Assembly (NCBI GenBank): GCA_903910705.1
Contig: CAIWAN010000053.1
Span: 20,917 to 84,916 of the forward strand
DNA: 64,000 nucleotides
Direction of reading: 5' to 3'
Source: an uncultured Candidatus Marinamargulisbacteria bacterium
GTDB taxonomy: Bacteria > Margulisbacteria > Riflemargulisbacteria > GWF2-35-9
In this document: in pieces, positions 10,421 through 60,882 of the stretch
How the letters are laid out: every line of letters begins with the position of its first letter
Position numbering within the stretch: position 1 is the first letter of the stretch
Made by a program: the position numbers and the translations under genes
The notes under the pieces: generated by a model
The model's input: the letters and a program-made list of their open reading frames with translations, nothing else
Database searches by the model: none
What the model was told of the DNA's origin: nothing

Positions 10421-11097
10421 AGGCTCTTTTTGTTTTGATTCTTATTTCCCTCGCCTTCTCAGGGTATCAACCCTCAGGGCTGATCAATAATATTTCGACG
10501 ACTCAACGAATCGTTTTCTTAACCTTCGATGATGGCCCCAAGACCGGCGTAACGGAACCGCTTTTAAAAATCCTCGCGAGTGAAAATGTTAAAGCGACGT
10601 TTTTCTTAGTAGGGGACAATATGGCCAAATATCCCGATCTGGTCGAGATGATCTTTGCACAAGGCCATGATGTCAGCAATCATACTTACGACCATATCCG
10701 CTTAGACAACCTCGATGGTGACGACCTTGACTATCAACTGCAAGAAACGAACCGTGTGATCGTCGATATTATCGGAAAGTCGCCCCGACTCTTTCGTCCA
10801 CCCGGAGGACGCTTTAATAACATTATCCTTGAAACACTAGGTAAATATGGCCTCATTCCCATCGGGTGGGCGATCAATACCAGTGATTATATCGAGGGTG
10901 TGAATGTTCACCTTTCAGCCGCGGCCATACAGACAAAAGTCAACGAGGTCATGGGAGCTGTCAGGGCCAATCTCCATCCGGGGGCTATTATCCTGATGCA
11001 TAATGGCAACGAGATCGGGATTCAGGCACTTCCCATCGTTATTCAATACGTTCGCTCACAGGGATATCAATTCAAACGGTTGTCAGACGTTTTATAA
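10417..11097 (+). CDS. Polysaccharide deacetylase (NodB homology domain) with a signal peptide.
   Basis: 'FLTFDDGP', 'HTYDH' and 'ILMHNG' motifs. Its start overlaps the queE stop by 4 nt. Confidence 0.8.
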   Translation: MKALFVLILISLAFSGYQPSGLINNISTTQRIVFLTFDDGPKTGVTEPLLKILASENVKATFFLVGDNMAKYPDLVEMIFAQGHDVSNHTYDHIRLDNLDGDDLDYQLQETNRVIVDIIGKSPRLFRPPGGRFNNIILETLGKYGLIPIGWAINTSDYIEGVNVHLSAAAIQTKVNEVMGAVRANLHPGAIILMHNGNEIGIQALPIVIQYVRSQGYQFKRLSDVL

Positions 11098-13128
11098 CGC
11101 AATTGCTTTAAAATCAGCGATTTGATTAAAGACGCTGTTGAGTGTTTTGAGGACACTGAGGCGATTGGTTTTTACAGCCGAGTCGTTCGCCATGACCATC
11201 ACCTCTTCGAAATAAGTTGAAAGCTCTTTGGCAATCGTTCCTAAGGATAGAATAAAGTTTGCGTCCCAGTTGTTTTGAACGGCTGACTGAAGAACTCGAG
11301 TGGTCTTCCACAGGGTCGTTTCGATCGGAAGTTCAAAAAGCTGGGGGTTGATCGCTTTGATCGCTGTAATCGCTTTGGTGATATTGGCGACGCGGACGGC
11401 GGCTTCGACAATTTTAGAAAAAACAGGCGCGTCGAGCTGAAGGAGTTTAATGGCCGCGAGTCGTTTCATTAAGCAGGGTAGGTCAAGCGTCAGCACAGCT
11501 GAAACGATGTCTTGTGGAATAGCTCGATCGCGAAGCAGGGTGGCGAGTCGTTGTAAGAAAAACTCGTCTAATTTAGATCGAGTCTCCTCGGGAATCGTCG
11601 TTAAGGGCAGATTCGCCAGTGCCTTTTCGATAAGGTGTCTAATGTCGCAGGTTAAGTCAGGGGTTTCGATCAGGATTTGAATAACACCATTAGCTTGGCG
11701 GCGGAGTGCATAGGGGTCAAAAGAACCACTGGGGATATGTCCGATGGCGAAGTGTCCGACGATCGAATCGACTTTATCGGCTACGGAGGCTATTCTAGCT
11801 AAGAGTGAATTGGGCAAATCGTCCCCCGCGAAGGCGGGTCGATAATGTTGCGCAATCCCCTTAGCGATGGCGGGTGATATGCCCCAGATGAGGGCATATT
11901 GCTCACCCACATAGCCTTGTAATTCCGTAAACTCGATGACCATATGGGTCGCGAGATCAAATTTTGAAAGCGTGAGGAGTTCTGTTAAAGGTTTATGTTG
12001 ATCAGGGGACAGTTGGGTTAAATGGCCGAGGTATAGGGCCAAGGCCAAGTTGCGGGCGACTTTGTCTGAAATGGAGCCCAACTCTTGTTGATAGGTGATG
12101 GATGCGAGCTTATCGAGAAAGAAAGGCGCTTGTTTGCTGATATCATCCTCAAAATAGAATCGAGCATCCGAAAGCCGTGCCCGAACCACCCGTTCATTCC
12201 CCGCGATGATCGTTGGGGCGTTGGTGGGGGTGACATTATCGGCTGTGATCAGAAAGGTGTTCGTGAGTTTCCCATTCTTAAAAACAGGGATATATTTTTG
12301 ATGTTTCTTCATGGTGATGATGAGTATCTTTTCGGGAATAGCCAAATACGGCGCCTCGAAGTGTCCCTCAAGGAGGGTCGGATATTCGACTAGATAGGTT
12401 AATTCAAGAAGCAGCTCATCGTCGATAGAGAGATCAGGGTAAAGGGCGTGTACTTGGCGAACGATACTGTCTTCTCGGTCTTTTGGGGCGACAAGGACAC
12501 TGGCTTTTCGAAGTGTTTCAACATAAACAGAAGCGGCTGAAAGCGATAGGGGCCGGCCTTCGAGGGTCTCACCACCCGAAAGGAAACGATGGCCATATGT
12601 TAGACGATCTGCTGATTGTCCCGCGAAGGACAGGGGAAGCACGTTGAGCCCCAAGAGAGACACGACCCAATGAACGGGTCGAATGAATGATGTTGCTTCA
12701 TGCCCCCAATGCATCGCAATGGGGAGGTAGAGGTCTTGCAGGGATTGAAGGACAAGGTCGCCCAGTACATCAGGCGTGGCGTTAGCTTTTTGTTCGATAG
12801 AAAGCGTTAAATAGCCATCGACCACTGTGCTCGATGTTTGTCCGTTTTTCTTCAGAAACCCTAAACCCGCGGGGGTATAGTCGCCTTGCTCGGTAAGGGC
12901 GATCTTGACCGGTGGGCCTTTGATGGTAAGGGTTGAGGCCGCTTGGGTTGCAGCAATATTTTGAATAACGAGAGCCAACCGACGGTATGACCCATAGGTA
13001 AGAATAGCGTCAAACGTGATGCGAGATTGTGTCAATCGCGTTTCGAATTGTTTCCTAAGTCCCTCAAGCAAGGTGTCGACAAATCGTGACGGGATCTCTT
13101 CGGTGCCGATCTCTAAAAGATAATCCAT
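11092..13128 (-). CDS. glyS: Glycine--tRNA ligase beta subunit.
   Basis: N-terminus 'MDYLLEIGTEEIPSRFV' is characteristic. 678 aa. Confidence 0.92.
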   Translation of the reverse strand: MDYLLEIGTEEIPSRFVDTLLEGLRKQFETRLTQSRITFDAILTYGSYRRLALVIQNIAATQAASTLTIKGPPVKIALTEQGDYTPAGLGFLKKNGQTSSTVVDGYLTLSIEQKANATPDVLGDLVLQSLQDLYLPIAMHWGHEATSFIRPVHWVVSLLGLNVLPLSFAGQSADRLTYGHRFLSGGETLEGRPLSLSAASVYVETLRKASVLVAPKDREDSIVRQVHALYPDLSIDDELLLELTYLVEYPTLLEGHFEAPYLAIPEKILIITMKKHQKYIPVFKNGKLTNTFLITADNVTPTNAPTIIAGNERVVRARLSDARFYFEDDISKQAPFFLDKLASITYQQELGSISDKVARNLALALYLGHLTQLSPDQHKPLTELLTLSKFDLATHMVIEFTELQGYVGEQYALIWGISPAIAKGIAQHYRPAFAGDDLPNSLLARIASVADKVDSIVGHFAIGHIPSGSFDPYALRRQANGVIQILIETPDLTCDIRHLIEKALANLPLTTIPEETRSKLDEFFLQRLATLLRDRAIPQDIVSAVLTLDLPCLMKRLAAIKLLQLDAPVFSKIVEAAVRVANITKAITAIKAINPQLFELPIETTLWKTTRVLQSAVQNNWDANFILSLGTIAKELSTYFEEVMVMANDSAVKTNRLSVLKTLNSVFNQIADFKAIAL

Positions 13129-13223: not shown

Positions 13224-14399
13224 GTGCGACTATTTAGACATATGTTCCGAAGAATAGTGCGATTAACCGAGAATAATAGTTATTTTCTTTTGGGCCCTAG
13301 GGGAACAGGGAAGTCAACACTTCTAAAAAATACCTTTACCGAGGATAATGCTTTTTGGGTTGATTTGCTGAATCCCGACCAAGAGCATGAGTACGTCCTA
13401 CATCCGATGCGAGTTATCGAAAAATGGCAAGCGATGGAACCCCAACCCCAATGGATTGTTATCGATGAGGTTCAAAAGATCCCAAAACTTCTGGATGTTG
13501 TTCACTTTGCCATTGAGAAGTACGGGATATGGTTTGCGCTAACCGGGTCCAGTTCGAGAAAGCTAAAGAGTAGTTCAACTAATTTATTAGCAGGTCGAGC
13601 GTTTGTGCATCATTTGCATCCCCTGTCATATCTCGAAATGGGTGACCAGTTTGATTTAGTCGATGCGTTGCAATGGGGAACCCTACCGAAAATATCGGCT
13701 TTTCAAACATCTCTTGATAAAAAACGTTTTTTAAACGCTTACACACAAACCTATTTAAAAGAAGAAATTCAACTTGAACAGATTGTTCGTAAAATGGAAC
13801 CTTTTAGACGTTTTATTGAGGTGGCCGCCCAATCAAATACAGATATCCTTAATTTTTCAAAATTAGCTCGAGAGGCTGGAATCGAGGCCAAAAGTGTGGA
13901 GCGATATTTCGACATATTAAGTGATACATATTTAGGTTTTTACCTTGATGCTCGTCATGCATCCGTTCGCAAGCGACAACTGCTTAAGCCCAAGTTTTAT
14001 TTCTTTGATACCGGTGTATGTCGGGCGGCACAGAATATGCTTGATGTTGAGGTCAGACCCAAAACCTTTGTCTTTGGGAAATTATTCGAGTCATTTATTA
14101 TCGCTGAAGCTTTTCGGCAAAATGACTATTTTGAAAGGAACTTCACGCTTTCCTATTTGCGAACCAAAGACGATATGGAAATTGACCTCATTCTGGATAA
14201 GCCAGGTCATCCAACAACTTTTATTGAAATAAAATCAACAGACCAGGTTGATTCAAGCGATTTACGCTCGTTGCGGTCGGTTCAAAAAGTATGTCCTAAC
14301 GATAATTTTGTGGTCTGGAGCCTTGAAAATTCAGCCCGACTTGTTGAAGGAATCTATATCCTGCCTTGGCAGGAAGGGTTAAAAAAAGCATTTGGATAA
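13224..14399 (+). CDS. AAA family ATPase with a DUF4143-type C-terminal domain (paralog 1).
   Basis: Walker A 'GPRGTGKSTLLK', Walker B 'IVIDEVQK', and a 'LTGSSSRKL' motif. It is a paralog of 27437..28627. Confidence 0.75.
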   Translation: MRLFRHMFRRIVRLTENNSYFLLGPRGTGKSTLLKNTFTEDNAFWVDLLNPDQEHEYVLHPMRVIEKWQAMEPQPQWIVIDEVQKIPKLLDVVHFAIEKYGIWFALTGSSSRKLKSSSTNLLAGRAFVHHLHPLSYLEMGDQFDLVDALQWGTLPKISAFQTSLDKKRFLNAYTQTYLKEEIQLEQIVRKMEPFRRFIEVAAQSNTDILNFSKLAREAGIEAKSVERYFDILSDTYLGFYLDARHASVRKRQLLKPKFYFFDTGVCRAAQNMLDVEVRPKTFVFGKLFESFIIAEAFRQNDYFERNFTLSYLRTKDDMEIDLILDKPGHPTTFIEIKSTDQVDSSDLRSLRSVQKVCPNDNFVVWSLENSARLVEGIYILPWQEGLKKAFG

Positions 14400-22870: not shown

Positions 22871-24015
22871 AATGGTTGAAAAATCGTCTCCATTTGTAGT
22901 GACCGAGACCCTTTCACGAGGATAACATATCCTTTTTTATCGGTTGATCTTATCGCTTGAGCAACCTTGATCTTATCATCAATATCATACCAGTCGTGAC
23001 CCTTTTTCACAAAGGGTTTGAATATTTGCCCCACCCACGTTACCCAAGTAATTTGAGGATGACGCGCAACAAAGTCGATCAATTCTTTATGCGCCGTTTG
23101 TGCGTGGTCGCCGAGTTCTCTCATTTCACCCAAAACTACTCCCAAGGGCCGATCAGGGAAGTCGTCGATGAGCTTCTTGATCGCAAAACACATGCTTTCA
23201 GGATTGGCGTTGTAGGTGTCGTCGATGAGTGTGTTTTGCCCCCACTCGATGCGTTGTTGACGATGAGCGCTTGGCACGGTGAAGGAGGCCAAAGCCTTTT
23301 CGATATTGGCTTCGGTGACGCCGACTTGTCGCGCGAGTGCAGTAACCATTTGAAAGTTGGAGCGGATCGGGTCGGGTTCCGTTATCGTGGACACCGAGAA
23401 CCCCCTTTTTTTCGCGATCCCACTAACCAGTTCAAAGTAATTCATCTCGGTATTAAGAATGGTTTTAAAACTCCTTCCCTTAGTAAGGGAAGGTGCCCGA
23501 AGGGCGGAAGGGTCGAAATCAAAGACCTCTGCCTTGGCCAACGCAATATTTCGGCGAGTTTTTAGTAACTCAATATGAGTAGATCCAAGGCTAGAAATAA
23601 GGACCCAGTCAGGCTTGGCGATTTGGGTAAGATGCTTGATTTGACCCCTGCCGCGCATCCCCATTTCGACGACAACAAAATCCGCATCGTTAGGAGTATT
23701 AAGTAGGGTGAGCGGAACACCAATCTCGTTGTTTTGGTTTTCGGCCGTCTTGGCCACTTTGAATTGGGTGTTCAGAACAGCGGCCAGTAGGTCTTTGACG
23801 GTTGTTTTTCCCGCGCTTCCCGTTATGCCAATCACGATGGCTTTTAACCTGTTGCTTCTGAAATCGGTCGCGTAGGTCGTCAAATCAACATCAAGAACCC
23901 GAGCCCCCTTTGCCAACACATCTTTGATATAATTATGGCCATCAAAACGAGGCCCTTTGACGGGGATAAACCAGTCGCCCGCTTGAACCGAACGACTGTC
24001 GATGGAATAGCTCAC
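22867..24015 (-). CDS. murF: UDP-N-acetylmuramoyl-tripeptide--D-alanyl-D-alanine ligase.
   Basis: 'IGITGSAGKTTVKDLLAAVL' and the Mur ligase central and C-terminal domains. 382 aa, which is somewhat short. Confidence 0.85.
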   Translation of the reverse strand: MSYSIDSRSVQAGDWFIPVKGPRFDGHNYIKDVLAKGARVLDVDLTTYATDFRSNRLKAIVIGITGSAGKTTVKDLLAAVLNTQFKVAKTAENQNNEIGVPLTLLNTPNDADFVVVEMGMRGRGQIKHLTQIAKPDWVLISSLGSTHIELLKTRRNIALAKAEVFDFDPSALRAPSLTKGRSFKTILNTEMNYFELVSGIAKKRGFSVSTITEPDPIRSNFQMVTALARQVGVTEANIEKALASFTVPSAHRQQRIEWGQNTLIDDTYNANPESMCFAIKKLIDDFPDRPLGVVLGEMRELGDHAQTAHKELIDFVARHPQITWVTWVGQIFKPFVKKGHDWYDIDDKIKVAQAIRSTDKKGYVILVKGSRSLQMETIFQPL

Positions 24016-24016
24016 C

Positions 24017-25165
24017 CTAAGCCTCGAGACATTGCTTGGCTACCTCGGTGTCGTTAAAGGGGAGGGTTTCGGTGCCGATGATTTGATAGGTTTCGTGTCC
24101 CTTTCCCGCAATGACAACAACATCGCCCTCTTTTGCAAGGCCGATAGCGGTTTGGATCGCTTGACGACGATCTTCAATAACGAGCGGAGTGTGAACCTGA
24201 ATGCCGACTTGAATACTCGCAAGGATGGCCGTTGGGTCTTCCAGTCGAGGATTGTCACTGGTCAGGATGATGGAATCTGCCCATTGGTCGGCTACCTTGC
24301 CCATTAAGGGGCGCTTGGTGGTGTCACGATTGCCGCCGGCACCAAAGACGACGATAAGCTTCCCCGTGGTGATCTCTTTGGCTGTTCGCAAAATATTATC
24401 GAGGCCATCGGGGGTATGAGCGTAATCGATAAACACCTTGAAGGGCAACGTCGAGGGGATCATCTCGAATCGCCCCTTGGGTGGGTTGGCTTTCGAAAGC
24501 GCTTTTTTGATGATCGAATCAGAAATTCCTAGATGCTTAGCGATCGCATAAGCAGTTTGGATGTTGCTTTTATTGAACCGACCTTGCAGAAGAACCGGAA
24601 AATCGATGGAGATCTGTTTATAATCACGAGGGAAAACGGTCGGACCCGGTAATCGAAGGAATGACATTTTTGCGGCCGTATAGGCTTTGAAGGTTTTGTG
24701 ATAGTCGAGATGGTCGCGCGTGATATTGGTCAACGCTTTAACAGAGAAGGGGATGCCCGCGATCCGATCCTCAACAATACCGATAGAGGATACCTCCATA
24801 ACGAGATTTCGTTCCCCTTTGTCTTGCATATCGTTGAGGGTTGCTAATATCTGGTAGGGTTCGGGGGTTGTTAGCTGGGCATTAATTGTGCCCAATACCC
24901 GACAGGACTCTCCGTTCGCTTCAAGGATTTGTTTAATGAGGTGGGTGACTGTCGTTTTGCCGTTTGTCCCTGTGACGCCGATGACGCGGAGTTTGCTCCA
25001 GTCGAGGCTCCACGTTTGGGTTAAATAACAAGCGACTTGTGTTTTAGGGATAGCGATAATGCGCGAACAGGTGTTGGTCATATCGGGGGTAATATAGCTG
25101 CGCCCCTTGCCCACCGCGAGAAATGCATCTCCTGCCTTTATTTTTCGGGTATCGTCCTGTATCAT
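24017..25165 (-). CDS. murE: UDP-N-acetylmuramoyl-L-alanyl-D-glutamate--2,6-diaminopimelate ligase.
   Basis: 'IGVTGTNGKTTVTHLIKQIL' and 'DYAHTPDGL'. 382 aa with a short N-terminal domain. Confidence 0.85.
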   Translation of the reverse strand: MIQDDTRKIKAGDAFLAVGKGRSYITPDMTNTCSRIIAIPKTQVACYLTQTWSLDWSKLRVIGVTGTNGKTTVTHLIKQILEANGESCRVLGTINAQLTTPEPYQILATLNDMQDKGERNLVMEVSSIGIVEDRIAGIPFSVKALTNITRDHLDYHKTFKAYTAAKMSFLRLPGPTVFPRDYKQISIDFPVLLQGRFNKSNIQTAYAIAKHLGISDSIIKKALSKANPPKGRFEMIPSTLPFKVFIDYAHTPDGLDNILRTAKEITTGKLIVVFGAGGNRDTTKRPLMGKVADQWADSIILTSDNPRLEDPTAILASIQVGIQVHTPLVIEDRRQAIQTAIGLAKEGDVVVIAGKGHETYQIIGTETLPFNDTEVAKQCLEA

Positions 25166-26916: not shown

Positions 26917-26982
26917 GAAAACCCCTCTGTGTTCATCTTATCACGATAGGATTTGATAATCCTAGGCGAATGCGTTTTAATA

Positions 26983-27396
26983 ATGAATATGAAACGTGGG
27001 TTTATTTTGATCGAGATCATGATGGTGATGTTATTGGTGACGATCCTGTTCCCCCTTATTTATGGATTTGTTTTTCGTGAAGTCGCGAAAGAGACGCGTC
27101 AAATGGTAGCGTCTGACGAGGCGCAGCAGATCCTTTTTGTCCAAAACACCCTCGAAAGATTAAGATCGGAAGCCTCGACTATCAGTGTTGAACCGACCCG
27201 ACTGGTCTTTACCTCAAGTCGAGATGTGACAACCGTTTGGCTAAAGAATAAAGAAATCGCACAGGATAACGGGGTCTTGCGCTACTTGACCATGACGCCG
27301 GTGGAGGTGAGTCGTTTTCTCATTTCGGGCGAGCCACCTGACCGCGTGCGTTTTACCGTTCAGACGCAGCGAAAACAATATGAGTGGAGTTTGTAA
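26983..27396 (+). CDS. Prepilin-type N-terminal cleavage/methylation domain protein (pseudopilin-like).
   Basis: N-terminus 'MNMKRGFILIEIMMVMLLVTILFPL' matches the G|F(T/I)LIE prepilin motif, followed by a hydrophobic helix. Confidence 0.55.
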   Translation: MNMKRGFILIEIMMVMLLVTILFPLIYGFVFREVAKETRQMVASDEAQQILFVQNTLERLRSEASTISVEPTRLVFTSSRDVTTVWLKNKEIAQDNGVLRYLTMTPVEVSRFLISGEPPDRVRFTVQTQRKQYEWSL

Positions 27397-27436
27397 TCCT
27401 TGACCATACTTCCAATTTATATTATAAATATGAAGT

Positions 27437-28627
27437 ATGATTCATAGAATATTGAATATGGATAGTTTGAATGGGGGCGGGTCCGCCTTTCTTTTTGGCC
27501 CTCGCGGTGTGGGCAAAACTTATCTTTGCCGAGACTATATTCGACAATCCCCGCACGTCCATAAGGTCGAGCTGTTAAATTATGAAGTTTATTCTCGTTA
27601 TCTGCGCCAACCAGAACTCTTTCGTAAGGAAATTGAAAATAAGCTCGTCGAGGAGAAACCTCTACTTGTCTTAATTGATGAAGTGCAGAAGCTCCCCTCG
27701 TTGCTTGATGAGGTGCATTATTTAATCGAGACGTATAAAAATAAAGTAAATTTTATTTTGACGGGTTCAAGTGCTCGAAAGTTGAAGCGAGGTGGTGCCA
27801 ATTTATTGGCTGGACGTGCTTGGTCGCTGAAGCTTCATCCTCTGACCCATCGAGAAGTGACTCTCGATCTTGAGAAAGCTCTTGTGTATGGGACACTGCC
27901 TGCGATTTATCTTGATGATAAGTTTCCTGCCAGAACCTTAAAGGCCTATGTTGAGACGTACTTAAAAGAAGAAATATTTCAAGAGGCTTTGGTTCGGCGG
28001 GTTGAAGGGTTTTCTCGTTTCATCGAAATGGCTGGACAGATGAATAGTGAGCCGATCAATTTTTCAAAAATAGCGAGAGAATGTGGAGTAAGCAATCATA
28101 CTGTCCAAGAGTATTATTCCATATTAGTAGACACGCTGTTAGTGTTTCGCTTAGATGCTTGGCATCATTCGGTTCGAAAGCAAATTGCTCAAGCACCTAA
28201 GTTTTATTTCTTCGATTGTGGCGTTCTAAATGCTATACGACGCGATTTGAATGTTGAGCTTAATGTCCAGTCGTATCGCTATGGGAAATTATTCGAGACC
28301 TTTATGGTTCAAGAATTAATTCGTCTCAATGACTACCTCGAAACGGATTATCAGTTCTATTATTGGCGAACTAACACAGGGCTTGAGGTGGATGTCGTTT
28401 TATCTCGGGGGGCAAACGAACCGCTTATTGCGATTGAGATTAAATCTCATCATTCGCCTGCAGAAAATGATCTATCCGCACTCAGGTCTTTTAAGTCAGA
28501 GAATGAAAATGCCAAATTGATTTGTTTTAGCAATTCTCCTCAGGCCTATTCGTTGGGAGATATAATGGTTTATCCATGGCAGGAAGGGATAAATGCCGTG
28601 CTAGGTTCATCTCCCGCACGCGTCTAA
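27437..28627 (+). CDS. AAA family ATPase with a DUF4143-type C-terminal domain (paralog 2).
   Basis: 'GPRGVGKTYLCRDY', 'VLIDEVQK' and 'LTGSSARKLKRGGANLLAGRA'. About 35-40% identical to 13224..14399 by eye. Confidence 0.75.
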   Translation: MIHRILNMDSLNGGGSAFLFGPRGVGKTYLCRDYIRQSPHVHKVELLNYEVYSRYLRQPELFRKEIENKLVEEKPLLVLIDEVQKLPSLLDEVHYLIETYKNKVNFILTGSSARKLKRGGANLLAGRAWSLKLHPLTHREVTLDLEKALVYGTLPAIYLDDKFPARTLKAYVETYLKEEIFQEALVRRVEGFSRFIEMAGQMNSEPINFSKIARECGVSNHTVQEYYSILVDTLLVFRLDAWHHSVRKQIAQAPKFYFFDCGVLNAIRRDLNVELNVQSYRYGKLFETFMVQELIRLNDYLETDYQFYYWRTNTGLEVDVVLSRGANEPLIAIEIKSHHSPAENDLSALRSFKSENENAKLICFSNSPQAYSLGDIMVYPWQEGINAVLGSSPARV

Positions 28628-29879
28628 AAATGTTGACTTGCTCGGATCGGGGGAAGGTTGAGGGGTTCAGCGCAAAGGCTGAAGAGCGGCACATGATCCA
28701 TGGCTCATCGTTATAAAGCGGAGTACCCGGTGGGGGGTAAAACACTGACGGGGCAACGAGGATGTCATATTTATACAGAAACGACAGCGTTTCTTTGATG
28801 TCAGTAGCGGTTTGATCGGGCAGACCCAAAATAAAATACGCGGTGATGGCAAAGCCGATCGCCTTTGCCTCCTTTACAACGCGATCAAAGATCGTATTAT
28901 TGGTGCCTCGGTTTAACCGCGTTTGCTCAGACTCTTGGGCGGTTACAAGGGAGAGATTCAGATTCCGAAACCCTGCTTGCCACATGAGTTCTAAAAGGGG
29001 TTGATCGAGGGTTTCGAGGGCGATGCCATTCATAGCATATAGTCGAATGTCCTTAAACGTTGCAATGATCTCGGTCAGTAACGCCATAAACCACGCTCGA
29101 TTGAGGCTGAGATTATCATCTTCAAAATCGAACACGCGCACGTGTCGAGTGTCATAGAGTGTTTTCATTTCTGCCATTATTCCCTCAACGGTACGCCAAC
29201 GCATCGATCGCCCATACATCGACGAAACCGTGCAAAAGGTACAGGCTTTAACGCAGCCGCGACTGGCGACGAGGGCCGCCATATTCTGTCGATGCATCGG
29301 GTAAAGGGACGGGTTTATTAGGTGATGATCGGGGATAAAGGTTTCAAAGTTAAAGGGTGCAGCATCAATGCCCAACATTGTTAATAAGGCCGCTTCGCCT
29401 TCACCCGAGATAAGGTCGACAAAGGGTAGACGTTGCTTGATCGCATCGCTAAAAACAGTCGCATGATAGCCACCAAGGATGATCTTGATAGAGGGAAAGG
29501 CTTTGTTGATTTTTTGGCACAAGGTCTCAACCGCATCAAAATAGGCAGTGAAGTTAGCCGAGATCCCAATGATATCTGGGGCGAATGTTTCGATGTGTTG
29601 AAGAATAGCCTCATCGGACAACCCAAAACGATAATAGTGCCCAAAGAGTTTGGTCGGACCTTTTTCATTTGGGTCGTAGTACTCTTTTAGGTAATCAAAG
29701 ACTTCTGGGTAGGCCAGTGTTCGCCGTGTGAGGGGGTTGAGACAGTCGAGTATTGAGACCTCGATGCCTGCGGCCTCAAGCGCCGAAGCCAGATAGATCA
29801 AGTTGAGCGGGTATGTCCGAATGGGCGTGATATAAAAATCTTCGATAGGGGGTTGAATCAACAGGACACGCGGTTGCAT
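28527..29879 (-). CDS. B12-binding domain radical SAM protein (class B radical SAM).
   Basis: N-terminal cobalamin-binding-like region, then 'ASRGCVKACTFCTVSS', a Cx3CxxC cluster. Last gene of a co-directional array. Its start and the upstream gene's stop both lie at 29879 (1-nt overlap). Confidence 0.8.
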   Translation of the reverse strand: MQPRVLLIQPPIEDFYITPIRTYPLNLIYLASALEAAGIEVSILDCLNPLTRRTLAYPEVFDYLKEYYDPNEKGPTKLFGHYYRFGLSDEAILQHIETFAPDIIGISANFTAYFDAVETLCQKINKAFPSIKIILGGYHATVFSDAIKQRLPFVDLISGEGEAALLTMLGIDAAPFNFETFIPDHHLINPSLYPMHRQNMAALVASRGCVKACTFCTVSSMYGRSMRWRTVEGIMAEMKTLYDTRHVRVFDFEDDNLSLNRAWFMALLTEIIATFKDIRLYAMNGIALETLDQPLLELMWQAGFRNLNLSLVTAQESEQTRLNRGTNNTIFDRVVKEAKAIGFAITAYFILGLPDQTATDIKETLSFLYKYDILVAPSVFYPPPGTPLYNDEPWIMCRSSAFALNPSTFPRSEQVNIFRRVREMNLARHLSLPAMDKPLYLPTNRPEENC

Positions 29880-39200: not shown

Positions 39201-41726
39201 TTATGGGACATAAATGGGGACTACAGCGCCATCGTCAAAAACAAGATAAATCAAGGGAGTAGAGTCTTGTGAGACAAGGATTCGTTTCTTTGTTTTTTGG
39301 GAATATACCGAATCAAGATAAATTGCAGTCGACATGTCCAGTTGAGCTACTTTACTAGCTTTAGCAGGGAATAGCCGATCATCTTTCTTTACCATGATCG
39401 CTTTGATTTTGAGTTGGGAAACGTTACCAGCATCAGCGAATATGTTGAGCTCATTTGGTTTAAACCCAAAACGATAGGTTCGTTTTTTATACAGAAAAGC
39501 ACCTGCAACATTAGAGTTATTTATTATTGAATCACTAGGTTGTGTCACCTGTGTGATTATCGTTGGATTATAGATTTGAGAAATTGCTAAGTTATATTGA
39601 GCATAGTTTTTCGGTCTTTGAGGAATCGCTAAGTTATATTGAGTTTTCTTTGTTGGTCTTTGATTTCTCGTAGAATTTATCGGCTCTCTTTTATAGACAA
39701 CTGCACTATCGGGGGGTAGGGTGAGGGGGTGTTTTGCTTCGCTGAAGCGAAGATGTTGAGTCGGATTCGTTTTTGCCTCGTTAGAATCAAAAACAACACA
39801 TTTCCAGGGACCCTTTCCGAAAAAGCTTAAATCGGTCAACGTTTTTTCTCGATCACTGAAGTTAGAAATGACAACGATTTGCTCGTCATCATTGATAGGA
39901 TTTGTCCGCCGCATGATGGCGACCCCATCCTTGATGTACGAATTTTGCGTTGGCCAAACCCCATCAAGAGGTGATGAGGCATTTGACAACCAGGGACAAT
40001 CCTTTCGTAATTTTCGAAGCTTCTCAAACGAGGTTCTATCGGCGTTCTCATTAATTTCAATTAATTGTAGCGTGTCGTTGCAGAACGCGACCCACATCTT
40101 TTGAAGAATATACTTGTTAAATCTAACAAAATTTAAATCATCACTTTCAAAAAGCCCTCGCCTCACTTCAAAATTGCCTTGGTCTTGCTCAATAAAAAAT
40201 TGACGATGAAAATTGGTTGCGAAGTTCTTCATTTGGGTGGGATCATTCTCAAAAAAGGTCAATAAGTGAGTTCGAGTCTTTAGCTGTTCATCTGTTAGAT
40301 CTAAAAGTCTTCCGATTTTTTCAGCCAATAATGCGGAGGCACGACAAGGGTCTTCCTCATCACGAAAAAAGTCAAACCAATCATAAGGAAACATAAGCGG
40401 AATCCCTTTTGCAAGCATCATCAGAAATTCCATAGGGACATTTCTTCCCGTATAGTCATCATGGGTCGAATAAAAAGGAATTGCATGGGGGTGATGGATT
40501 AATCGATCAAGTAATAACGAAAGAGTATGTGTCCAGCCATCAACTCGTTTTAAGACCGCTCTTGCAAAATGCAGGGTGTCAAAATCCCAATAAAAAATTT
40601 TTCCTTGTGAAGAGGGCGTTATTTGTTGACGTAGTTGCCATCCGTTTTCTGCTTCGAAAAAAAGGTAATTTCCCTCGTTGACTAAGGCCTCAATCAGGGG
40701 AGCGCTTTCGGCGCGTCGGATTTGATCCAATCGAAAATGATTAATGCCAAATTGTTCTTTTAAGAATCGAAGACTTGCCACCGCAAACTCCAAAATAAAA
40801 GGGTCGCTGTAGTTAAATTTAAACCCCCAATCACCCAACTCGGAAAGAAGAAGATTCCATACCTTATTAATCGGACTGTCTAGCTCGGTACAATGATTCA
40901 GTTGAAGGTCGAGTATGGGGATGATGCGTAATTCGCGAAGACGATTAAGAAATCTTAGCCACTCATATGGTGACCCAAAACGAGAACTTAGTGAACAATG
41001 ATATCCAAATCCATCATAACCCCAATTTTTGTTTATATGAGGGGGCGGGTTGTTGATGAAGTGATAGGTATTGATTCCGTCATTTTCTTTAAACAACAAA
41101 TCAGGGAGAGCTGCCACCTCAACGATAGGAAATGTCTCAATCCCTCCTATACTTCGAAAGCGAGGCAGTCGCCGGCCTGTTAAGGCTGTCAACCATTTGT
41201 CTAAAGGTGATAGTGTGCTTTTGTTTGTATTTGAGTCAGGTGATATATCAAAAGATATCTTAACAATGGAGCTAGGGAGTTCATCTGAATCGCTTCTCTT
41301 AAGTGGGACTTTGGTATAGTCAATGATCGTGGCAACTTTGCCTTCTGGTCCTGCAGGGAAATGTCGCCCACAAGGATCTGCATATTCTTTCAAATCGGCT
41401 TTATTATTAACATCGCTACCATAACAATAAAGTGCCCCGAATTTTGACGGGTTGTCGCGATATTCTTGTTGAGAAACATCCGCCATGGGTGATAATCCTT
41501 TGATGGCGACATAAAACACATTATGTGTTTTATCGTGTTTCATATCAATGACGTGACGAACATAATTTCCGTCATCCTTGGGTAAATAGAGAATCAAAGA
41601 TTGCTTCACTTCGGGCTGTTTGGGTGCATAGCAGGCAAAGGTTGTAATTTGAGTTGACGGGTCGTAATGGCCACTTGATTCAACCAGAGAATTGGCGATT
41701 TTTTTTTTGAGATACATTCTGCACAT
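39201..41726 (-). CDS. Glycoside hydrolase family 13 (alpha-amylase superfamily) protein.
   Basis: GH13 conserved regions are present: 'IIPILDLQLNHC' (I), 'GINHFRLDQIRR' (II), 'LFFEAENGW' (III) and 'FYSTHDDY' (IV). 841 aa, with an A9-10 tract at codons 6-9. Confidence 0.65.
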   Translation of the reverse strand: MCRMYLKKKIANSLVESSGHYDPSTQITTFACYAPKQPEVKQSLILYLPKDDGNYVRHVIDMKHDKTHNVFYVAIKGLSPMADVSQQEYRDNPSKFGALYCYGSDVNNKADLKEYADPCGRHFPAGPEGKVATIIDYTKVPLKRSDSDELPSSIVKISFDISPDSNTNKSTLSPLDKWLTALTGRRLPRFRSIGGIETFPIVEVAALPDLLFKENDGINTYHFINNPPPHINKNWGYDGFGYHCSLSSRFGSPYEWLRFLNRLRELRIIPILDLQLNHCTELDSPINKVWNLLLSELGDWGFKFNYSDPFILEFAVASLRFLKEQFGINHFRLDQIRRAESAPLIEALVNEGNYLFFEAENGWQLRQQITPSSQGKIFYWDFDTLHFARAVLKRVDGWTHTLSLLLDRLIHHPHAIPFYSTHDDYTGRNVPMEFLMMLAKGIPLMFPYDWFDFFRDEEDPCRASALLAEKIGRLLDLTDEQLKTRTHLLTFFENDPTQMKNFATNFHRQFFIEQDQGNFEVRRGLFESDDLNFVRFNKYILQKMWVAFCNDTLQLIEINENADRTSFEKLRKLRKDCPWLSNASSPLDGVWPTQNSYIKDGVAIMRRTNPINDDEQIVVISNFSDREKTLTDLSFFGKGPWKCVVFDSNEAKTNPTQHLRFSEAKHPLTLPPDSAVVYKREPINSTRNQRPTKKTQYNLAIPQRPKNYAQYNLAISQIYNPTIITQVTQPSDSIINNSNVAGAFLYKKRTYRFGFKPNELNIFADAGNVSQLKIKAIMVKKDDRLFPAKASKVAQLDMSTAIYLDSVYSQKTKKRILVSQDSTPLIYLVFDDGAVVPIYVP

Positions 41727-41884
41727 CTTCAGGGGCGAATAGGGTGTTATTGTTCACAATTTCAAATGTCAAAGAGGAGTAAGCATCAGCGATAATTTTA
41801 AATTTTGACATAACTCACCATATGTAATATGTCGTTGATTTTGATAAATAAAGTCAAAAATACATATCGGTTGTTGTTGGTGCT

Positions 41885-42787
41885 TTAGTCTGTCATCAAC
41901 GGAAACCCCAGCGCCTCCCGTTTAGCGAGATAGAGCGCCGCGCATTTTTTGGCCAGATGGCGGATGCGGGCGATGTAGTGGGTGCGCTCGGTGACACTAA
42001 TGGCACCGCGGGCATCGAGTAGGTTGAAGGTATGCGAACACTTTAGACAATAGTCGTATCCGGGTAAGACGAGGTTCTTCTCAAGGCAACACTTTGACTC
42101 GTTCTCGAACAACCCAAAAAGCTGCTGAAGCATGTCGACATTGGCCACCTCAAAATTATAGGCACTTTGTTCTTTTTCGTTTTGCATATAAATATCGCCA
42201 TAACGGATATCCCCGACCCATTTGACGTCAAAGACCGAATCGACACCTTGAATGAACATAGCTAGACGCTCGATGCCGTAGGTGATCTCGACTGAGATAG
42301 GACTAAGCTCGAGGCCGCCACATTGTTGAAAATAGGTGAATTGGGTGACCTCCATGCCATCGAGCCACACCTCCCAACCCACCCCTGCCGCTCCGAGTGT
42401 AGGGGATTCCCAGTTGTCCTCAACGAAACGCAGATCGTGGTCAGCTACCTTAACGCCAATGGCTTCAAGGCTCTGGCGATAAAGCTCCTGCACATTGAGC
42501 GGGGAGGGTTTTAAGATGACCTGAAATTGAAAATAGTGAGCAAGGCGATTGGGGTTCTCGCCGTATCGGCCATCGGTGGGTCGACGAGAGGGCTCGACAT
42601 AGGCCACGTTAAATGGCTCGGGCCCAAGGACGCGAAGGAACGTGGCGGGGTTCATGGTGCCCGCACCCTTTTCGATATCGTAGGGCTGCTGAATAATGCA
42701 GTTTTGCTTTGCCCAGAAGTTTTGCAAGGTGAGGATGATGTCTTGGAAGGTTTGATCGTTCTTTGTCATGCGGGCATTATGCCACAT
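41885..42787 (-). CDS. glyQ: Glycine--tRNA ligase alpha subunit.
   Basis: '[46 protein letters not shown]' is highly conserved in GlyQ. Confidence 0.92.
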
Positions 42788-43214: not shown

Positions 43215-43598
43215 ATGTCTGCTGTGAATAAGATCGTGATGATCGGAAATTTGACGACAGATCCTGAGGTTCGCGTAACCACAGAAGGCACGTCGATGAC
43301 CCGCTTTACGATGTTGATCCAACGAGGCGGGGTTAATCAAGATAAATCAGACCTTATCCCCGTTGTATGTTGGGGCAAATTAGCCGAACAAGCCAATGAC
43401 ACTTTCCAAAAGGGCATGATGGTCGTTGTTGAGGGACGCATTCAAAACCGTTCCTTTGATGACAAAGACGGTCAAAAAGTATATACCACCGAAGTTATTG
43501 CTAGTTATGCACGGCTCTTAGACGGTAGTGCCGTGTCCAGTGTCGACAAGGCAGCCGATGAGGCTGAGCCCTATGTCGAAGACGATATCCCGTTTTAG
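43215..43598 (+). CDS. ssb: Single-stranded DNA-binding protein (copy 1, 127 aa) with an acidic C-terminal tail 'EDDIPF'.
   Basis: OB-fold residues 'NKIVMIGNLTTDPEVR' and the C-terminal tip DDIPF. Confidence 0.85.
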   Translation: MSAVNKIVMIGNLTTDPEVRVTTEGTSMTRFTMLIQRGGVNQDKSDLIPVVCWGKLAEQANDTFQKGMMVVVEGRIQNRSFDDKDGQKVYTTEVIASYARLLDGSAVSSVDKAADEAEPYVEDDIPF

Positions 43599-43611
43599 GA
43601 GACCATGACGA

Positions 43612-43980
43612 ATGTATAATAAAGTATTTTTAATTGGCAACTTGGCTCGCGACCCCGAAATGCGATATACCACAGCGGGTATCCCTGTGACCAAGTTCTC
43701 TGTGGCCGTTAATCGCCGCGGAGGCAAAGATGAAGTTGATTTTCTTAATATCGTCGCTTGGCGTAAATTGGCCGAGATCTGTGGCGAGTATTTAAGCAAA
43801 GGCAAAAAGGTGTCGATCGAAGGTCGTTTAGAGATCGATACTTATGAAAAAGAAGGGAAGCAACGCATCTGGGCGCAAATTATCGCTGATGATGTGCAAA
43901 TTCTTTCCCGCAAAGACGAAGAGACTAAATCCGAGGAGCCGTCCAGCAATGGGGCGAGCGACGAAGACGTTCCATTCTAG
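43612..43980 (+). CDS. ssb: Single-stranded DNA-binding protein (copy 2, 122 aa) with an acidic C-terminal tail 'DEDVPF'.
   Basis: 'NKVFLIGNLARDPEMRYT' and the C-terminal DEDVPF. Tandem paralog of the previous gene. Confidence 0.85.
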   Translation: MYNKVFLIGNLARDPEMRYTTAGIPVTKFSVAVNRRGGKDEVDFLNIVAWRKLAEICGEYLSKGKKVSIEGRLEIDTYEKEGKQRIWAQIIADDVQILSRKDEETKSEEPSSNGASDEDVPF

Positions 43981-44959: not shown

Positions 44960-46567
44960 ATGAGTCCTATTTCGGAAATTCCTGAAATTCCATCCTCGCC
45001 GGGGATATATCTCATGAAGAATGAGGCCGGCGAGGTGCTTTATGTGGGTAAAGCCAAAAATCTCCGAAAACGTGTAACGCAATACTTCAAACCCAGTTCG
45101 CCCCTTGCCCCCAAAATTGCGGTCTTGGTCGAACAGATCGCCCATATCGACTATGTGGTGGTCCAAAATGAAGTCGAGGCCTTGGTTCTCGAAAATCAGT
45201 TCATCAAGTCCCATGATCCCAAATACAATACGCGTCTCAAAGACAGTAAAACATACCCCTACTTAAAGTTAGACTTAACCGAACCGTTCCCTCGACTGAT
45301 CCAGACGCGCCTACGAAAGGCCGATAAGGCACTTTATTTCGGGCCGTTCGTGTCGGGATATCTGTTGTCCGAGTTGATGGGCGTGATCCGTGAACATTTC
45401 CATTTGAGGCGATGTAAAAAGATCCCCAAGCGCAATATCCCCTGTCTCTATTATCATATGGGGCGATGTTCGGGGCCCTGTATCGGCAAGATCACGGCAG
45501 AGGATTATCAAGTTTGGATAAAGGAGATCACCATGCTGCTGGAAGGGCGCTATGGCAAACTCATCGCCGCTGTTCATGAGCAAATGAATCGGGCCAGTGA
45601 CATGCTGAATTTTGAGAAAGCGGCTCAGTTTCGCGAACAATCCAAAGCTATCGAACAACTTCGGGACAAGCAACGGGTCGAATCTCTGACGCAAGACGAC
45701 AACCTCGATGTGTTTTTGGTGATGATGTTCGATGATTATGTGATCTTGCAGGTTTTTCGCGTCAAAGAAGGCTGTTTGGTTCAGAACTATAGTTTCGATA
45801 TGGAGAATACCCGTATCGATGAAAAAGAGGATATTATGGCGACAGGGGTGATGCAATTCTATCAAGAACAGAGCGATGTTCCTCGTCGAGTCATCGTTGA
45901 TCATGAGCCGGAGGGGCTTCGGGGTTGGTTGGCGCAGAGAGGCATGAAGCTTAGTTTGGCTGTTCCGAGTTCGGCCGAAGGACAGTTGATGGATATGCTT
46001 CGTCAAAATGCGTTCCACGTCATGAAGCGAAAACTCATAACAAAACAAGGGCTTTCTTACGACCAAGTGGCTAAGAAATTGGCGGATGACCTTGGGTTGT
46101 CGAAGAATCCTCGACGGATCATTGGCATCGATATCTCTCATTTAGGGGGAACGCAAATTGTGGCGTCGTGTGTTAGCTTTATGGACGGTGTTCCGGATAA
46201 AGACGATTATCGAAGGTTCAATATCAAGACCGTCGAGTATAATGACGACTATGCCTCGATCGCTGAAGTGGTGACCCGCGTTGCAAAACGATTTACATCC
46301 AAGCAAAGACCGGATCTGATGTTGATTGATGGAGGGCTTGGCCAACTCCATGCGGCGATGGAAGCCCTCCGGAAATTAGACGTCAAAGGGCTCGATATTT
46401 TGTCGCTCGCAAAAAAAGAAGAAATTGTTTATTTGCCGACCCGCCCGAATGGGGTAAAATTAGACCATCAACATTCGGGGCTAATAATCCTGCAGCAAGT
46501 TCGGGATGAAGCGCACCGATTTGCCGTACAATTTCAGCGCCATAAAAGGAAAGCGATATTTCAATGA
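44960..46567 (+). CDS. uvrC: Excinuclease ABC subunit C. GIY-YIG and RNase H-like endonuclease domains are present; the C-terminal (HhH)2 domain appears to be absent.
   Basis: GIY-YIG 'PGIYLMKNEAGEVLYVGKAKNLRKRV'. C-terminal 'RDEAHRFAVQFQRHKR', after which the ORF ends. Confidence 0.75.
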   Translation: MSPISEIPEIPSSPGIYLMKNEAGEVLYVGKAKNLRKRVTQYFKPSSPLAPKIAVLVEQIAHIDYVVVQNEVEALVLENQFIKSHDPKYNTRLKDSKTYPYLKLDLTEPFPRLIQTRLRKADKALYFGPFVSGYLLSELMGVIREHFHLRRCKKIPKRNIPCLYYHMGRCSGPCIGKITAEDYQVWIKEITMLLEGRYGKLIAAVHEQMNRASDMLNFEKAAQFREQSKAIEQLRDKQRVESLTQDDNLDVFLVMMFDDYVILQVFRVKEGCLVQNYSFDMENTRIDEKEDIMATGVMQFYQEQSDVPRRVIVDHEPEGLRGWLAQRGMKLSLAVPSSAEGQLMDMLRQNAFHVMKRKLITKQGLSYDQVAKKLADDLGLSKNPRRIIGIDISHLGGTQIVASCVSFMDGVPDKDDYRRFNIKTVEYNDDYASIAEVVTRVAKRFTSKQRPDLMLIDGGLGQLHAAMEALRKLDVKGLDILSLAKKEEIVYLPTRPNGVKLDHQHSGLIILQQVRDEAHRFAVQFQRHKRKAIFQ

Positions 46568-49781: not shown

Positions 49782-50558
49782 TTAGCTTATAGCATTAACG
49801 AGACTTTGATGGTCATTACTATGAAGTTCTATGTACTCAGAAGAATTTGCAATATCGCTTGCAATTTCAAGGATTGTCGCGCCATTATTTGCTTGTTGTA
49901 CCCAGAATGATTTGCCAGCGGAGTCAGATGGTCTGCCAAGTAATGTCGCGTAGAGGCTCTCAATATCATTCCCCGTCACTTTTCCCTGATGACTTGAGGT
50001 ATATTCAGAATCTTTCAGAAAACATAGAGTCATATCGCTTAGAGTTGCTCCCTTATTAGCAGCATCTTGCCAGTATTTAAATCCTGCAGCATCAGGGGCT
50101 CGATTGAGAAGATTGTTATACAGAGAAGTGATCTGAGCATCTGAAACGGTGCGAACAGAAGAAACAGAAGAAGCTGAAGAAGCAGAAGAAGTGGAGTTTA
50201 TTGCCGAGGATTTCGCCGTTCTTGTTTGGGGCGTGGAGGTTGTCGTTGTGCTGTTGGTCGCTGTGATAGGGCTCTGTGTTTGGGTCACTTGATTTTGCAG
50301 GCTTGCAGCAGCAACTTTGGCTTGTCGTTGTTGAATATAGGCTAATAAGCCAGCGACCAAGGAATCTGGATGGGAGGTGTTCCCAACATCGGCAATGTCT
50401 TTTGTATTTATCACATCAGTTGTCGTTGTTAACTTATTATATGCAGTATTTGAACTATTGAGGACTACATCCTTGATGCCCCCAGTCGCTGCTGCATTTC
50501 CCCCAGAAATACTACTTAATGAATTGGCCCCAACGTCTATCCCATTTGTGATTGCCAT
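49782..50558 (-). CDS. Hypothetical protein with two DUF4214-like repeats and Thr/Ser-rich linkers.
   Basis: Repeats 'ITSLYNNLLNRAPDAAGFKYWQDAANKGATLSDM...SEY' and 'IESLYATLLGRPSDSAGKSFWVQQANNGATILEI...SEY'. Confidence 0.5.
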   Translation of the reverse strand: MAITNGIDVGANSLSSISGGNAAATGGIKDVVLNSSNTAYNKLTTTTDVINTKDIADVGNTSHPDSLVAGLLAYIQQRQAKVAAASLQNQVTQTQSPITATNSTTTTSTPQTRTAKSSAINSTSSASSASSVSSVRTVSDAQITSLYNNLLNRAPDAAGFKYWQDAANKGATLSDMTLCFLKDSEYTSSHQGKVTGNDIESLYATLLGRPSDSAGKSFWVQQANNGATILEIASDIANSSEYIELHSNDHQSLVNAIS

Positions 50559-50770
50559 ATTGCATTCCCCCTTCTATTGGATTTAATTTGATTTCATATA
50601 GTTTATCGTCAAGTATTGATAGTTTAATTGCATCGATTTATTTTGGTGTGTCCCTTCAGTTGATATATTGCCCTCTTTTGGTGTGCTTTAAACTATAAAT
50701 ATTTTTCCTGCCGAATCATTGACGCATTTTGTTGGGTTTGATCTTACAAATTTCCCTCTTGAATTAAATT

Positions 50771-60584: not shown

Positions 60585-60882
60585 TCTAAAACCGGATTAT
60601 TTATCCACTATAAAGCAAATTCTATCCCATCGCCTTCACGATGAACGGGTGTATATTTTTGGTTCGCGTGTAGACGGAAGAGCAAAACCGCACTCGGACA
60701 TCGATCTCATTATTGAATCGAGTTTGCCCCTCCCTGAAACCCTTATCCTCTCTCTTCGAAATGATTTTGAGGATTCCGATTTGCCACTTCGGGTCGATAT
60801 TCTCGATGGTGCCCAATTGACACCGAGTTTTCGCGCAATCGTCGATGCGAATAAAGTTGAGTTGCAGTACGCCAATCCGTAA
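60577..60882 (+). CDS. Minimal nucleotidyltransferase (MNT/HI0073-like).
   Basis: 'YIFGSRVDGRAKPHSDIDLIIE', the GS...D.D nucleotidyltransferase motif. Confidence 0.65.
   Translation: MLDLKPDYLSTIKQILSHRLHDERVYIFGSRVDGRAKPHSDIDLIIESSLPLPETLILSLRNDFEDSDLPLRVDILDGAQLTPSFRAIVDANKVELQYANP

Follow-up and report, generated by a model that had tools for sequence, protein, structure and literature searches.

How did 14.5 kb of accessory DNA come to lie between two convergent backbone genes of a deep-branching freshwater-lake bacterium, and did it arrive all at once? The DNA in question occupies positions 27397–41884 of a 64-kb stretch (hereafter the window) of contig CAIWAN010000053.1, from an uncultured Candidatus Marinamargulisbacteria bacterium, and is bounded by a pseudopilin-like gene on the left and by glyQ on the right. 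A preliminary description of the window had proposed a single AT-rich island of about 13 kb, at 28527–41880, that was horizontally acquired and carried defence or other accessory genes. The results presented here make it very probable that the block is a multi-layered accessory and defence island, which accumulated between the pseudopilin gene and glyQ. The presence of an acquired island among core genes is supported by synteny in outgroups, by variable cargo, and by defence content, while its arrival in one acquisition is contradicted by a layered distribution, with the DUF4143, radical SAM and HExxH genes being common to three close genotypes.

The limits of the block are set by two deeper relatives, used here as outgroups, whose UvrC proteins share 52% and 46% identity with that of the window. 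Both are collinear with the window, having the order murE-sigma-SpoIIE-pseudopilin followed by glyQ-rpsF-ssb-ssb-rpsR-rplI-uvrC, and in both the pseudopilin gene and glyQ stand tail to tail, 62 bp and 117 bp apart. Neither DUF4143, radical SAM and HExxH genes nor any other gene of the block were found between these flanks in the two outgroups. In the window, the left flank is a 147-aa pseudopilin-like product (26953–27396, plus strand) with a weak GspH/ComGF-type N-terminal match, and the right flank is glyQ (41885–42787, minus strand; TIGR00388, E value 6e-152). The glyQ of outgroup L187 has 81% identity with that of the window, and a positional orthologue of the pseudopilin gene with the same prepilin-type N-terminus adjoins it. 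Because two deep relatives keep the pseudopilin gene and glyQ so close together, the whole block from 27397 to 41884 is extra DNA, including the DUF4143 gene. Of the borders proposed in the preliminary description, glyQ on the right was placed correctly, while the left one was off by one gene: the DUF4143 gene had been taken for a flank and lies within the insertion.

Close relatives, which were reached by exact-protein and cluster look-ups, indicate how the block is divided. One of them, a 37.5-kb Logan contig from SRR26280455 (L082/L084), shares 88–93% nucleotide identity with the window on both sides and has the order glyQ, 643 bp, HExxH, 12 nucleotides, radical SAM, DUF4143. When it is aligned to the window by blastn, the matching blocks leave gaps exactly at 29872–38080 and 39046–41894. 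Junction alignments demonstrate that a strain-specific segment of 8.2 kb (29873–38064) stands in place of the 12 nucleotides that separate the stop codon of HExxH from the start codon of radical SAM; on the radical SAM side, the insert ends in a 594-aa gene whose stop codon overlaps the start of radical SAM (TAATG). The second strain-specific segment, of 2.85 kb (39046–41894), lies between HExxH and glyQ, and its 643-bp counterpart in L082 is unrelated, with 29% GC and a 167-aa open reading frame (ORF) on the opposite strand. A third genotype is represented by gene tables of ENA assemblies and by a JGI contig (L086), the DNA of which stops shortly upstream of radical SAM. Its radical SAM/HExxH junction is occupied by an oppositely oriented ORF of 493 aa, and a 142-aa ORF lies between HExxH and glyQ. 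The insertion points of the three genotypes agree within about 12 nucleotides. The block comprises at least two age layers, i.e., an older one formed by the DUF4143, radical SAM and HExxH genes that the three genotypes have in common, and strain-specific cargo at two junctions. The synteny check proposed earlier, whether glyQ and the DUF4143 gene are neighbours elsewhere, was informative in that glyQ adjoins the pseudopilin gene in the outgroups and the glyQ–DUF4143 interval of the relatives holds different cargo; conservation of the whole segment in all relatives, which would have spoken against acquisition, was not observed.

The base composition follows the same division. The mean GC content of the window is 0.459 and that of the first-reported span, 28527–41880, is 0.414, with a trough of 0.37–0.42 at about 30–42 kb in a 1-kb profile versus 0.44–0.52 elsewhere. 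The backbone, defined as the window minus the two strain-specific segments, has a GC content of 0.471 rather than the value near 50% that had been attributed to the flanks. The segment at 29873–38064 has 0.401, all other 8.2-kb windows having at least 0.449, and that at 39046–41894 has 0.398, all other 2.85-kb windows having at least 0.425; the minimum, 0.364, is reached in a pair of genes resembling the PD-T4-4 defence system (0.36–0.38 for the genes). The radical SAM gene (GC 0.487; GC at third codon positions, GC3, 0.54) and the HExxH gene (GC 0.48) are backbone-like even though they lie inside the reported span, and the DUF4143 gene, just left of its start, is AT-rich (GC 0.42, GC3 0.39). 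Median GC3 is 0.42 for the genes of the block versus 0.52 for the remaining genes of the window (Mann-Whitney p = 6e-4). The tetranucleotide correlation of the 8.2-kb insert with the backbone is 0.82, below all 11 backbone chunks of the same size (0.85–0.95), and the correlation of 0.82 for the segment next to glyQ is in the normal range for its own size. The AT-rich island of the preliminary description is recovered as two segments of about 0.40 GC, set in a mosaic and with a smaller contrast than had been described; GC content and tetranucleotide usage do vary along the block, and a uniform composition can be dismissed.

All genes from glyQ to the radical SAM gene are on the minus strand, and the DUF4143 gene is convergent with them on the plus strand. 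In the direction of minus-strand transcription the order is glyQ, an 841-aa GH13-like gene, HExxH, a truncated methyltransferase gene (mod’), genes A and B of the PD-T4-4-like pair, a 72-aa remnant (res’), an SNF2 gene, the 594-aa gene, and radical SAM. Scans for promoters and terminators returned sites no more commonly than in shuffled sequence. The defence content consists of the PD-T4-4-like pair, the relic of a type III restriction-modification (R-M) unit, and the DUF4143 ATPase, which is PDC-S01-like.

The mod’ gene (36682–38004, minus strand) encodes a methyltransferase of 440 aa with an in-frame internal deletion, and Pfam N6_N4_Mtase is matched at model positions 136–218 only. The product has 67% identity with the 705-aa Mod from Aminobacter plasmid pANY103c (NZ_AP017989.1), and it lacks about 260 aa (about residues 43–302), including motif IV, IYIDPPF, while retaining the S-adenosylmethionine motif I (FFCGSGTT; FxGxG) and the C-terminal domain. 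The res’ remnant (34452–34670, minus strand), recognized by sequence identity, is a 72-aa ORF of 51 homologous codons and a 21-codon tail, with 76–78% identity to residues 1–51 of the 895-aa Res helicase from the Aminobacter plasmid and from two metagenomic loci (L162 and L163). On the plasmid, the 705-aa methyltransferase gene is followed by that of the 895-aa DEAD/DEAH helicase, and PADLOC assigns the pair as a type III methyltransferase (E value 7e-117) and a type III restriction endonuclease. An assignment to the Hma system was rejected for this reason, i.e., the reference Mod/Res pair classes as type III. The unit in the window no longer has the attributes of a type III system, Mod being without motif IV and Res without helicase and endonuclease domains. 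With the catalytic motif gone from Mod and just 51 codons left of Res, both R-M genes are, as judged from their sequences, dead. Restriction without methylation is lethal, so Res would have been lost before, or together with, the activity of Mod.

Between these two remnants lie the genes of the PD-T4-4-like pair. Gene A (35271–36671, minus strand) encodes a P-loop NTPase of 466 aa that matches PADLOC models PDC-M47A (E value 4e-166) and PD-T4-4_A (E value 2e-144) as well as Pfam AAA_15/AAA_21, and gene B (34674–35270, minus strand) encodes a PD-(D/E)XK nuclease of 198 aa that matches PDC-M47B (E value 2e-41). The matches are full-length, covering positions 1–459 of 461 in PDC-M47A, 1–184 of 186 in PDC-M47B, and 3–372 in AAA_15, and the stop of A and the start of B are contiguous on the same strand. 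In alignments, the nuclease retains the conserved D82 and E97-x-K99, and the NTPase retains Walker B (IDEPE) and the H-loop. The closest plasmid-borne homologue of A, from a cyanobacterial plasmid, has 43% identity, and copies from E. coli plasmids have about 31% or less. A 465-aa allele of A was also observed on a 101,761-bp contig that bears the other proteins of the window.

The A-B cassette is located exactly at the mod/res boundary: the mod’ stop is followed by 10 nucleotides with a GGGAG ribosome-binding site, A, the B stop, 3 nucleotides, and the res’ start. On the Aminobacter plasmid, where both genes are intact, the stop of mod overlaps the start of res. When metagenomes were scanned with protein A, 80 loci were recovered. 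In two of them, L162 and L163, intact genes for Mod (779 aa), A (462 aa), B (193 aa) and Res (895 aa) follow one another with overlapping stops and starts; in L161 the order is the same, Mod is frameshifted, and an extra 194-aa ORF lies between Mod and A. An extra ORF at this position was seen in L168 as well. The Mod and Res proteins of L161–L163 have 62–79% identity with the window remnants, while A has only 41% and B only 31%, and in every such locus compared A-B is AT-richer than the Mod and Res genes that host it. This disparity suggests either exchange of the cassette or a much faster evolution of the guest. Components of R-M or BREX systems are the commonest families beside PD-T4-4-like pairs, 58 flanking ORFs including Eco57I/N6_Mtase (6), N6_N4_Mtase (5), BrxC (4), type ISP (2) and ResIII (2). 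PD-T4-4 itself came out of a functional selection in E. coli (Vassallo et al. 2022, PMC9519451), and has been classed as a system of a PD-(D/E)XK nuclease and a P-loop NTPase, assembling into higher-order complexes (bioRxiv 10.1101/2025.07.10.664194); the embedding of defence genes in modification-based systems has also been described (Payne et al. 2024, bioRxiv 10.1101/2024.01.29.577857). A-B, whose reading frames are full-length, is the sole component of the block that would be likely still to act against phages. By analogy with other nuclease-NTPase systems, the NTPase would control the nuclease, which would degrade nucleic acid during infection.

The history that we propose has three steps. 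In the ancestral state (layer 0), the pseudopilin gene and glyQ would have stood tail to tail, about 60–120 bp apart, and in layer 1 the genes for the DUF4143 ATPase, the B12-binding radical SAM enzyme and the HExxH protein would have been gained. In layer 2, the 8.2-kb block would have entered the 12-nucleotide spacer between HExxH and radical SAM, and the GH13-like gene the interval between HExxH and glyQ. The 8.2-kb block itself appears to be composite, with the Mod-A-B-Res unit as one module and the SNF2 gene and its 594-aa partner as another. Pfam, NCBIfam and PADLOC searches identified no integrase, transposase or relaxase among the proteins of the block; there are no att-like, direct or inverted repeats flanking it and no target-site duplication at its junctions, nor were tRNA or other RNA genes found nearby, the only tRNA genes in the window being at 6.4 kb. 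Because recombinase, tRNA and repeats are lacking, turnover of the cargo would most likely have relied on recombination in the conserved flanks or on illegitimate insertion at the few intergenic nucleotides where it is tolerated. For the same reason, i.e., the lack of an integrase, a tRNA and an att repeat, the locus is a hotspot-type island and not an integrative element. Defence islands of this type were reportedly treated by Makarova et al. in 2011 in terms of a ‘genomic sink’ model.

It might be supposed instead that the block dates from the ancestor of the lineage and was deleted in the relatives, so that a decaying native segment, rather than an acquired one, is being observed. The backbone-like GC and GC3 of the radical SAM and HExxH genes, which between close genotypes are as conserved as the backbone, would be in keeping with this view, as would the visible decay of several inner genes and the fact that the outgroups number just two. 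We nevertheless consider it improbable, because genotypes that are 88–93% identical differ in what they carry at the same two junctions, with three cargoes in all, and because the strain-specific parts are compositionally foreign. Furthermore, Mod and Res share 67–79% identity with genes of an alphaproteobacterial plasmid and of unrelated metagenomic contigs, a much closer match than any for the core proteins of the lineage, whose UvrC has about 40% identity to those of other phyla, and clean, independent deletions would be required in both outgroups, each leaving no more than 62–117 bp. Even less credence is given to a classical integrative mobile element (a prophage remnant, an integrative and conjugative element, a transposon or an integron-like array) with site-specific insertion next to glyQ. 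It is true that PD-T4-4 was first found in an element of E. coli that resembles an integrative and conjugative one (PMC9519451), and that insertion points shared within about 12 nucleotides could suggest site specificity. However, the absence of recombinase genes, flanking repeats and target-site duplications, together with the distance of the tRNA genes, is at variance with such an element, and selection accounts for the agreement of the insertion points, because a viable insertion must land in the 12 nucleotides between two conserved, co-oriented genes.

That the AT-rich stretch results from foreign contigs joined to a core-gene scaffold during assembly or binning would be a natural concern with a metagenome assembly, the more so as a number of short contigs end within the GH13-like gene, mod’ or gene B. 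This explanation is extremely improbable. At least four samples and assemblers yielded independent contigs with the junctions that link the GH13-like gene, HExxH, mod’, A and B, the sample names pointing to a stratified freshwater lake dataset labelled BUCK21, and the glyQ/GH13-like junction is also present on an independent contig of 3,967 bp. The exact proteins are recorded on the 101,761-bp contig as well, and both ends of each insertion abut sequence that is 85–93% identical to the relative. The repeated finding of the junctions in separately assembled contigs of several samples rules out a chimera.

Several observations weigh against the layered island as proposed. The polarity of gain depends on two outgroups, and one of these, like the third genotype, is represented by gene tables alone. 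Layer 1 may have been lost in the outgroups rather than gained in the lineage of the window, the radical SAM and HExxH genes being backbone-like. The proposed mechanism of insertion is based on a lack of mobility genes. Among the matches listed, the identity of glyQ to species genomes is 65–72%, the best being 71–72%. Finally, the Walker A sequence of NTPase A is GLNNTAKT, in which Ala32 precedes the Lys, while four homologues have a Gly at this position, and judging from this replacement the NTPase may be impaired.

The genes of the older layer are few. The DUF4143 gene (27437–28627, plus strand) encodes an AAA+ ATPase with Pfam AAA_14 and DUF4143 domains that matches PADLOC PDC-S01 (E value 2e-61); it is present in L082 and in the third genotype, with just about 80% nucleotide identity. 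It has 43% amino acid identity with a second DUF4143 AAA+ ATPase of the window, encoded at 13224–14399. The possibility that these paralogues are recent repeats which mediated a rearrangement was rejected because of this low identity. The second gene adjoins glyS, is AT-rich (GC3 0.365), and may mark another accessory insertion. The radical SAM gene (28527–29879, minus strand), identified by Pfam B12-binding and Radical_SAM domains, is about 90% identical in nucleotides to its L082 copy and is not present in the outgroups. The gene for the 297-aa HExxH protein (38065–38958, minus strand), so named for a motif seen in its sequence, is kept in L082 (85% nucleotide identity), where it lies directly upstream of the radical SAM gene, and in the third genotype; its product has no family match in Pfam, NCBIfam or PADLOC. 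The HExxH and radical SAM genes look like a two-gene unit that is now split by the 8.2-kb insert.

The gene at the HExxH/glyQ junction (39201–41726, minus strand) encodes a divergent GH13-like protein of 841 aa, with weak TreZ/GlgB matches confined to residues 232–339 (NCBIfam, E value 2e-5; PDB 6joy, E value 0.1). Motifs resembling GH13 regions I–IV can be found by eye (DLQLNH, HFRLDQ, FFEAENG and STHDD). The gene is strain-specific and AT-rich (GC3 0.365). The 643-bp stretch of L082 was considered as a possible remnant of it and rejected, as the two have no similarity. Among the gene calls of the preliminary description, the radical SAM, SNF2, ATPase/nuclease and methyltransferase fragment were confirmed, the HExxH motif is visible in the sequence, and GH13 is weakly supported.

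The second module of the 8.2-kb block contains the gene for an SNF2-family helicase of 922 aa (31664–34432, minus strand; Pfam SNF2-rel_dom, E value 2e-68, and Helicase_C) followed by that for its 594-aa partner (29879–31663, minus strand). The SNF2 protein was considered as a part of DISARM, Dpd or Zorya, and this was rejected since DrmA/B/C, DpdA-D and ZorA/B/C are unmatched among the proteins of the block and the matches of SNF2 to DpdE, ZorD and DrmD are confined to the generic ATPase core. The partner has no match in Pfam, NCBIfam or PADLOC. A word-indexed search returned eight relatives of it, and an exhaustive profile search returned 1,824 clusters at 50% identity, 847 of them with an E value below 1e-30; Pfam models, Tfb2 included, gave no hit in 73 members of the family. 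In all five of the other distinct contexts with an identifiable upstream gene, the partner directly follows an SNF2 gene of 912–936 aa on the same strand. These contexts are a Chondrinema plasmid, Cetobacterium, a metagenome-assembled genome of Saprospiraceae, and two metagenomic organisms, one of them on two contigs (loci including L089, L091, L093, L095 and L103); in a sixth (L102), the upstream ORF is partial and without identification. Four of the partner-linked SNF2 proteins have 45–50% identity to that of the window over their full length. The pair is widespread among bacteria and mobile, occurring on plasmids, flanked by insertion sequence elements, and inside the island of the window; the five other contexts are not obviously defence islands. 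Literature searches yielded no description of an SNF2-partner pair.

An AlphaFold2 model of the partner, built on a 106-sequence alignment, has a predicted local distance difference test (pLDDT) score of 91 and a predicted template modelling (pTM) score of 0.85, and Foldseek relates it to the p52/Tfb2 subunit of TFIIH. In a Foldseek search against the PDB, the 13 top-ranked matches, with E values of at most 0.001, are all from TFIIH-containing entries (E values down to 1e-7, probabilities of 0.98–1.0, about 560–610 aligned columns); their TM scores are just about 0.2, as expected of a flexible multi-domain protein. PDB titles name complexes rather than subunits, and the only title naming p52, that of 6tru, ranks 18 and 21. 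The top TFIIH chains are those that we take to be p52/Tfb2, and the weaker matches are presumably XPB chains. The domain order predicted for the partner is that of p52: winged-helix domains, then a ‘clutch’ domain resembling the N-terminal domain of XPB, and a small domain at the C-terminus. No link between the partner and p52 emerged at the sequence level when PDB sequences were searched with a profile, and hhalign detected neither similarity between the SNF2 N-terminus and the partner nor a clutch-like domain in the former. In TFIIH, p52 stimulates the ATPase of XPB and recruits this protein by forming a pseudo-symmetric ‘clutch’ with its N-terminal domain (bioRxiv 10.1101/507723); according to a 2012 paper, bacteria had yielded no homologue of p52 (PMC3353954). 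The resemblance seen in the model is a fold-level lead, not an established homology. SNF2 and its partner probably form a translocase complex with a regulatory subunit. We put forward, as a tentative proposal that is possible rather than probable, that they are a bacterial counterpart of the XPB-p52 module, in which a p52/Tfb2-like subunit with multiple winged helices would recruit or regulate a superfamily 2 (SF2) translocase.

Elsewhere in the window and its relatives, other features were noted. The glyS gene (11092–13128) is on the same strand as glyQ and 29 kb from it, with the dcw cluster between them, while glyS directly follows glyQ in 58 of 80 other bacteria sampled. The idea that the island split a glyQS operon was rejected: because the island-free outgroups also lack glyS next to glyQ, the separation is old and unrelated to the island. 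In close relatives (L082 18437–18953, corresponding to about 24015–24039 of the window) a two-gene cassette that is not in the window lies in the dcw cluster between Mur ligase genes, presumably murE and murF. It encodes an 80-aa protein with weak RHH_5 or DUF6290 matches and a 93-aa protein, and looks like a toxin-antitoxin pair. The third genotype has an extra DUF433 gene after mraY that is likewise not in the window. A variable spot at 49782–50749 carries an AT-rich gene (GC3 0.347) for a DUF4214 protein, and in L082 (368–2616) the same spot is taken up by a 549-aa ORF, a fragment of a Y1 transposase and then a shorter DUF4214 gene. At 60168–60882, an AT-rich NTase_sub_bind protein and a minimal nucleotidyltransferase are encoded, a pair that looks like a HEPN/MNT-type toxin-antitoxin module. 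The UvrC of the lineage (44960–46567 in the window) has 515–535 aa and is without the C-terminal helix-hairpin-helix domains of homologues of about 600 aa, and its MurE (24017–25165 in the window) has about 382–391 aa, the family model being matched in two pieces. Two tandem SSB paralogues between rpsF and rpsR (43215–43980) are kept in all relatives and outgroups examined. At the edge of the window (6–4523), a protein of 1,505 aa has a GH8 domain and C-terminal Ig-like/FlgD_ig domains.

As a kind, the island is known and ordinary, a hotspot defence island. It is of value as an unusually clean natural example of the build-up of a defence hotspot, as the relative ages of its three layers can be established from the available empty site, the two alternative cargoes and the two outgroups. 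In addition, the decay of the R-M unit around an apparently intact PD-T4-4-like pair indicates that an embedded guest can persist once its host has decayed, brings type III-like R-M systems under the ‘embedded defence’ idea, and, by comparison with intact Mod-A-B-Res units, offers a test case for the dependence of guest on host. The higher upside is that of the partner family, large, unannotated, encoded beside an SNF2 ATPase and predicted to have a p52 fold, which bears on the origin of the XPB-p52 module. If the homology were true, it would provide a prokaryotic antecedent for p52 and a new two-gene module for DNA surveillance or defence.

With respect to known systems, the block resembles defence islands and hotspots in having variable cargo between core genes, atypical composition, enrichment in defence genes, nested decaying systems, and different cargo at the same site in close strains. 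It differs in that it has no mobility gene or tRNA anchor and at least two age layers, and in that its radical SAM, HExxH and GH13-like genes have no evident defence role. Compared with the type III system of Aminobacter plasmid pANY103c, the order of mod, then res, is kept, while two foreign genes have come between them. Those genes agree with PD-T4-4/PDC-M47 in being two, co-oriented, and full-length matches to the family models; they depart from it in the Ala for Gly in Walker A and in their low identity to the E. coli plasmid copies. Like the embedded defence genes of Payne et al. (2024), and like PrrC within EcoprrI, A-B is nested between R-M genes in the same orientation with tight or overlapping boundaries, and the nesting recurs in the unrelated contigs L161–L163. 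The hosts described by Payne et al. are Hma, BREX, DISARM and type I R-M systems, whereas the host in the window is type III-like; moreover, unlike in those cases, what survives is the guest, its host system having decayed. The partner of SNF2 resembles p52/Tfb2 of TFIIH in its predicted domain architecture and in its pairing with an SF2 ATPase, which is here a genetic one, but it is without sequence similarity to p52, and its ATPase is of the SNF2 type rather than the XPB type.

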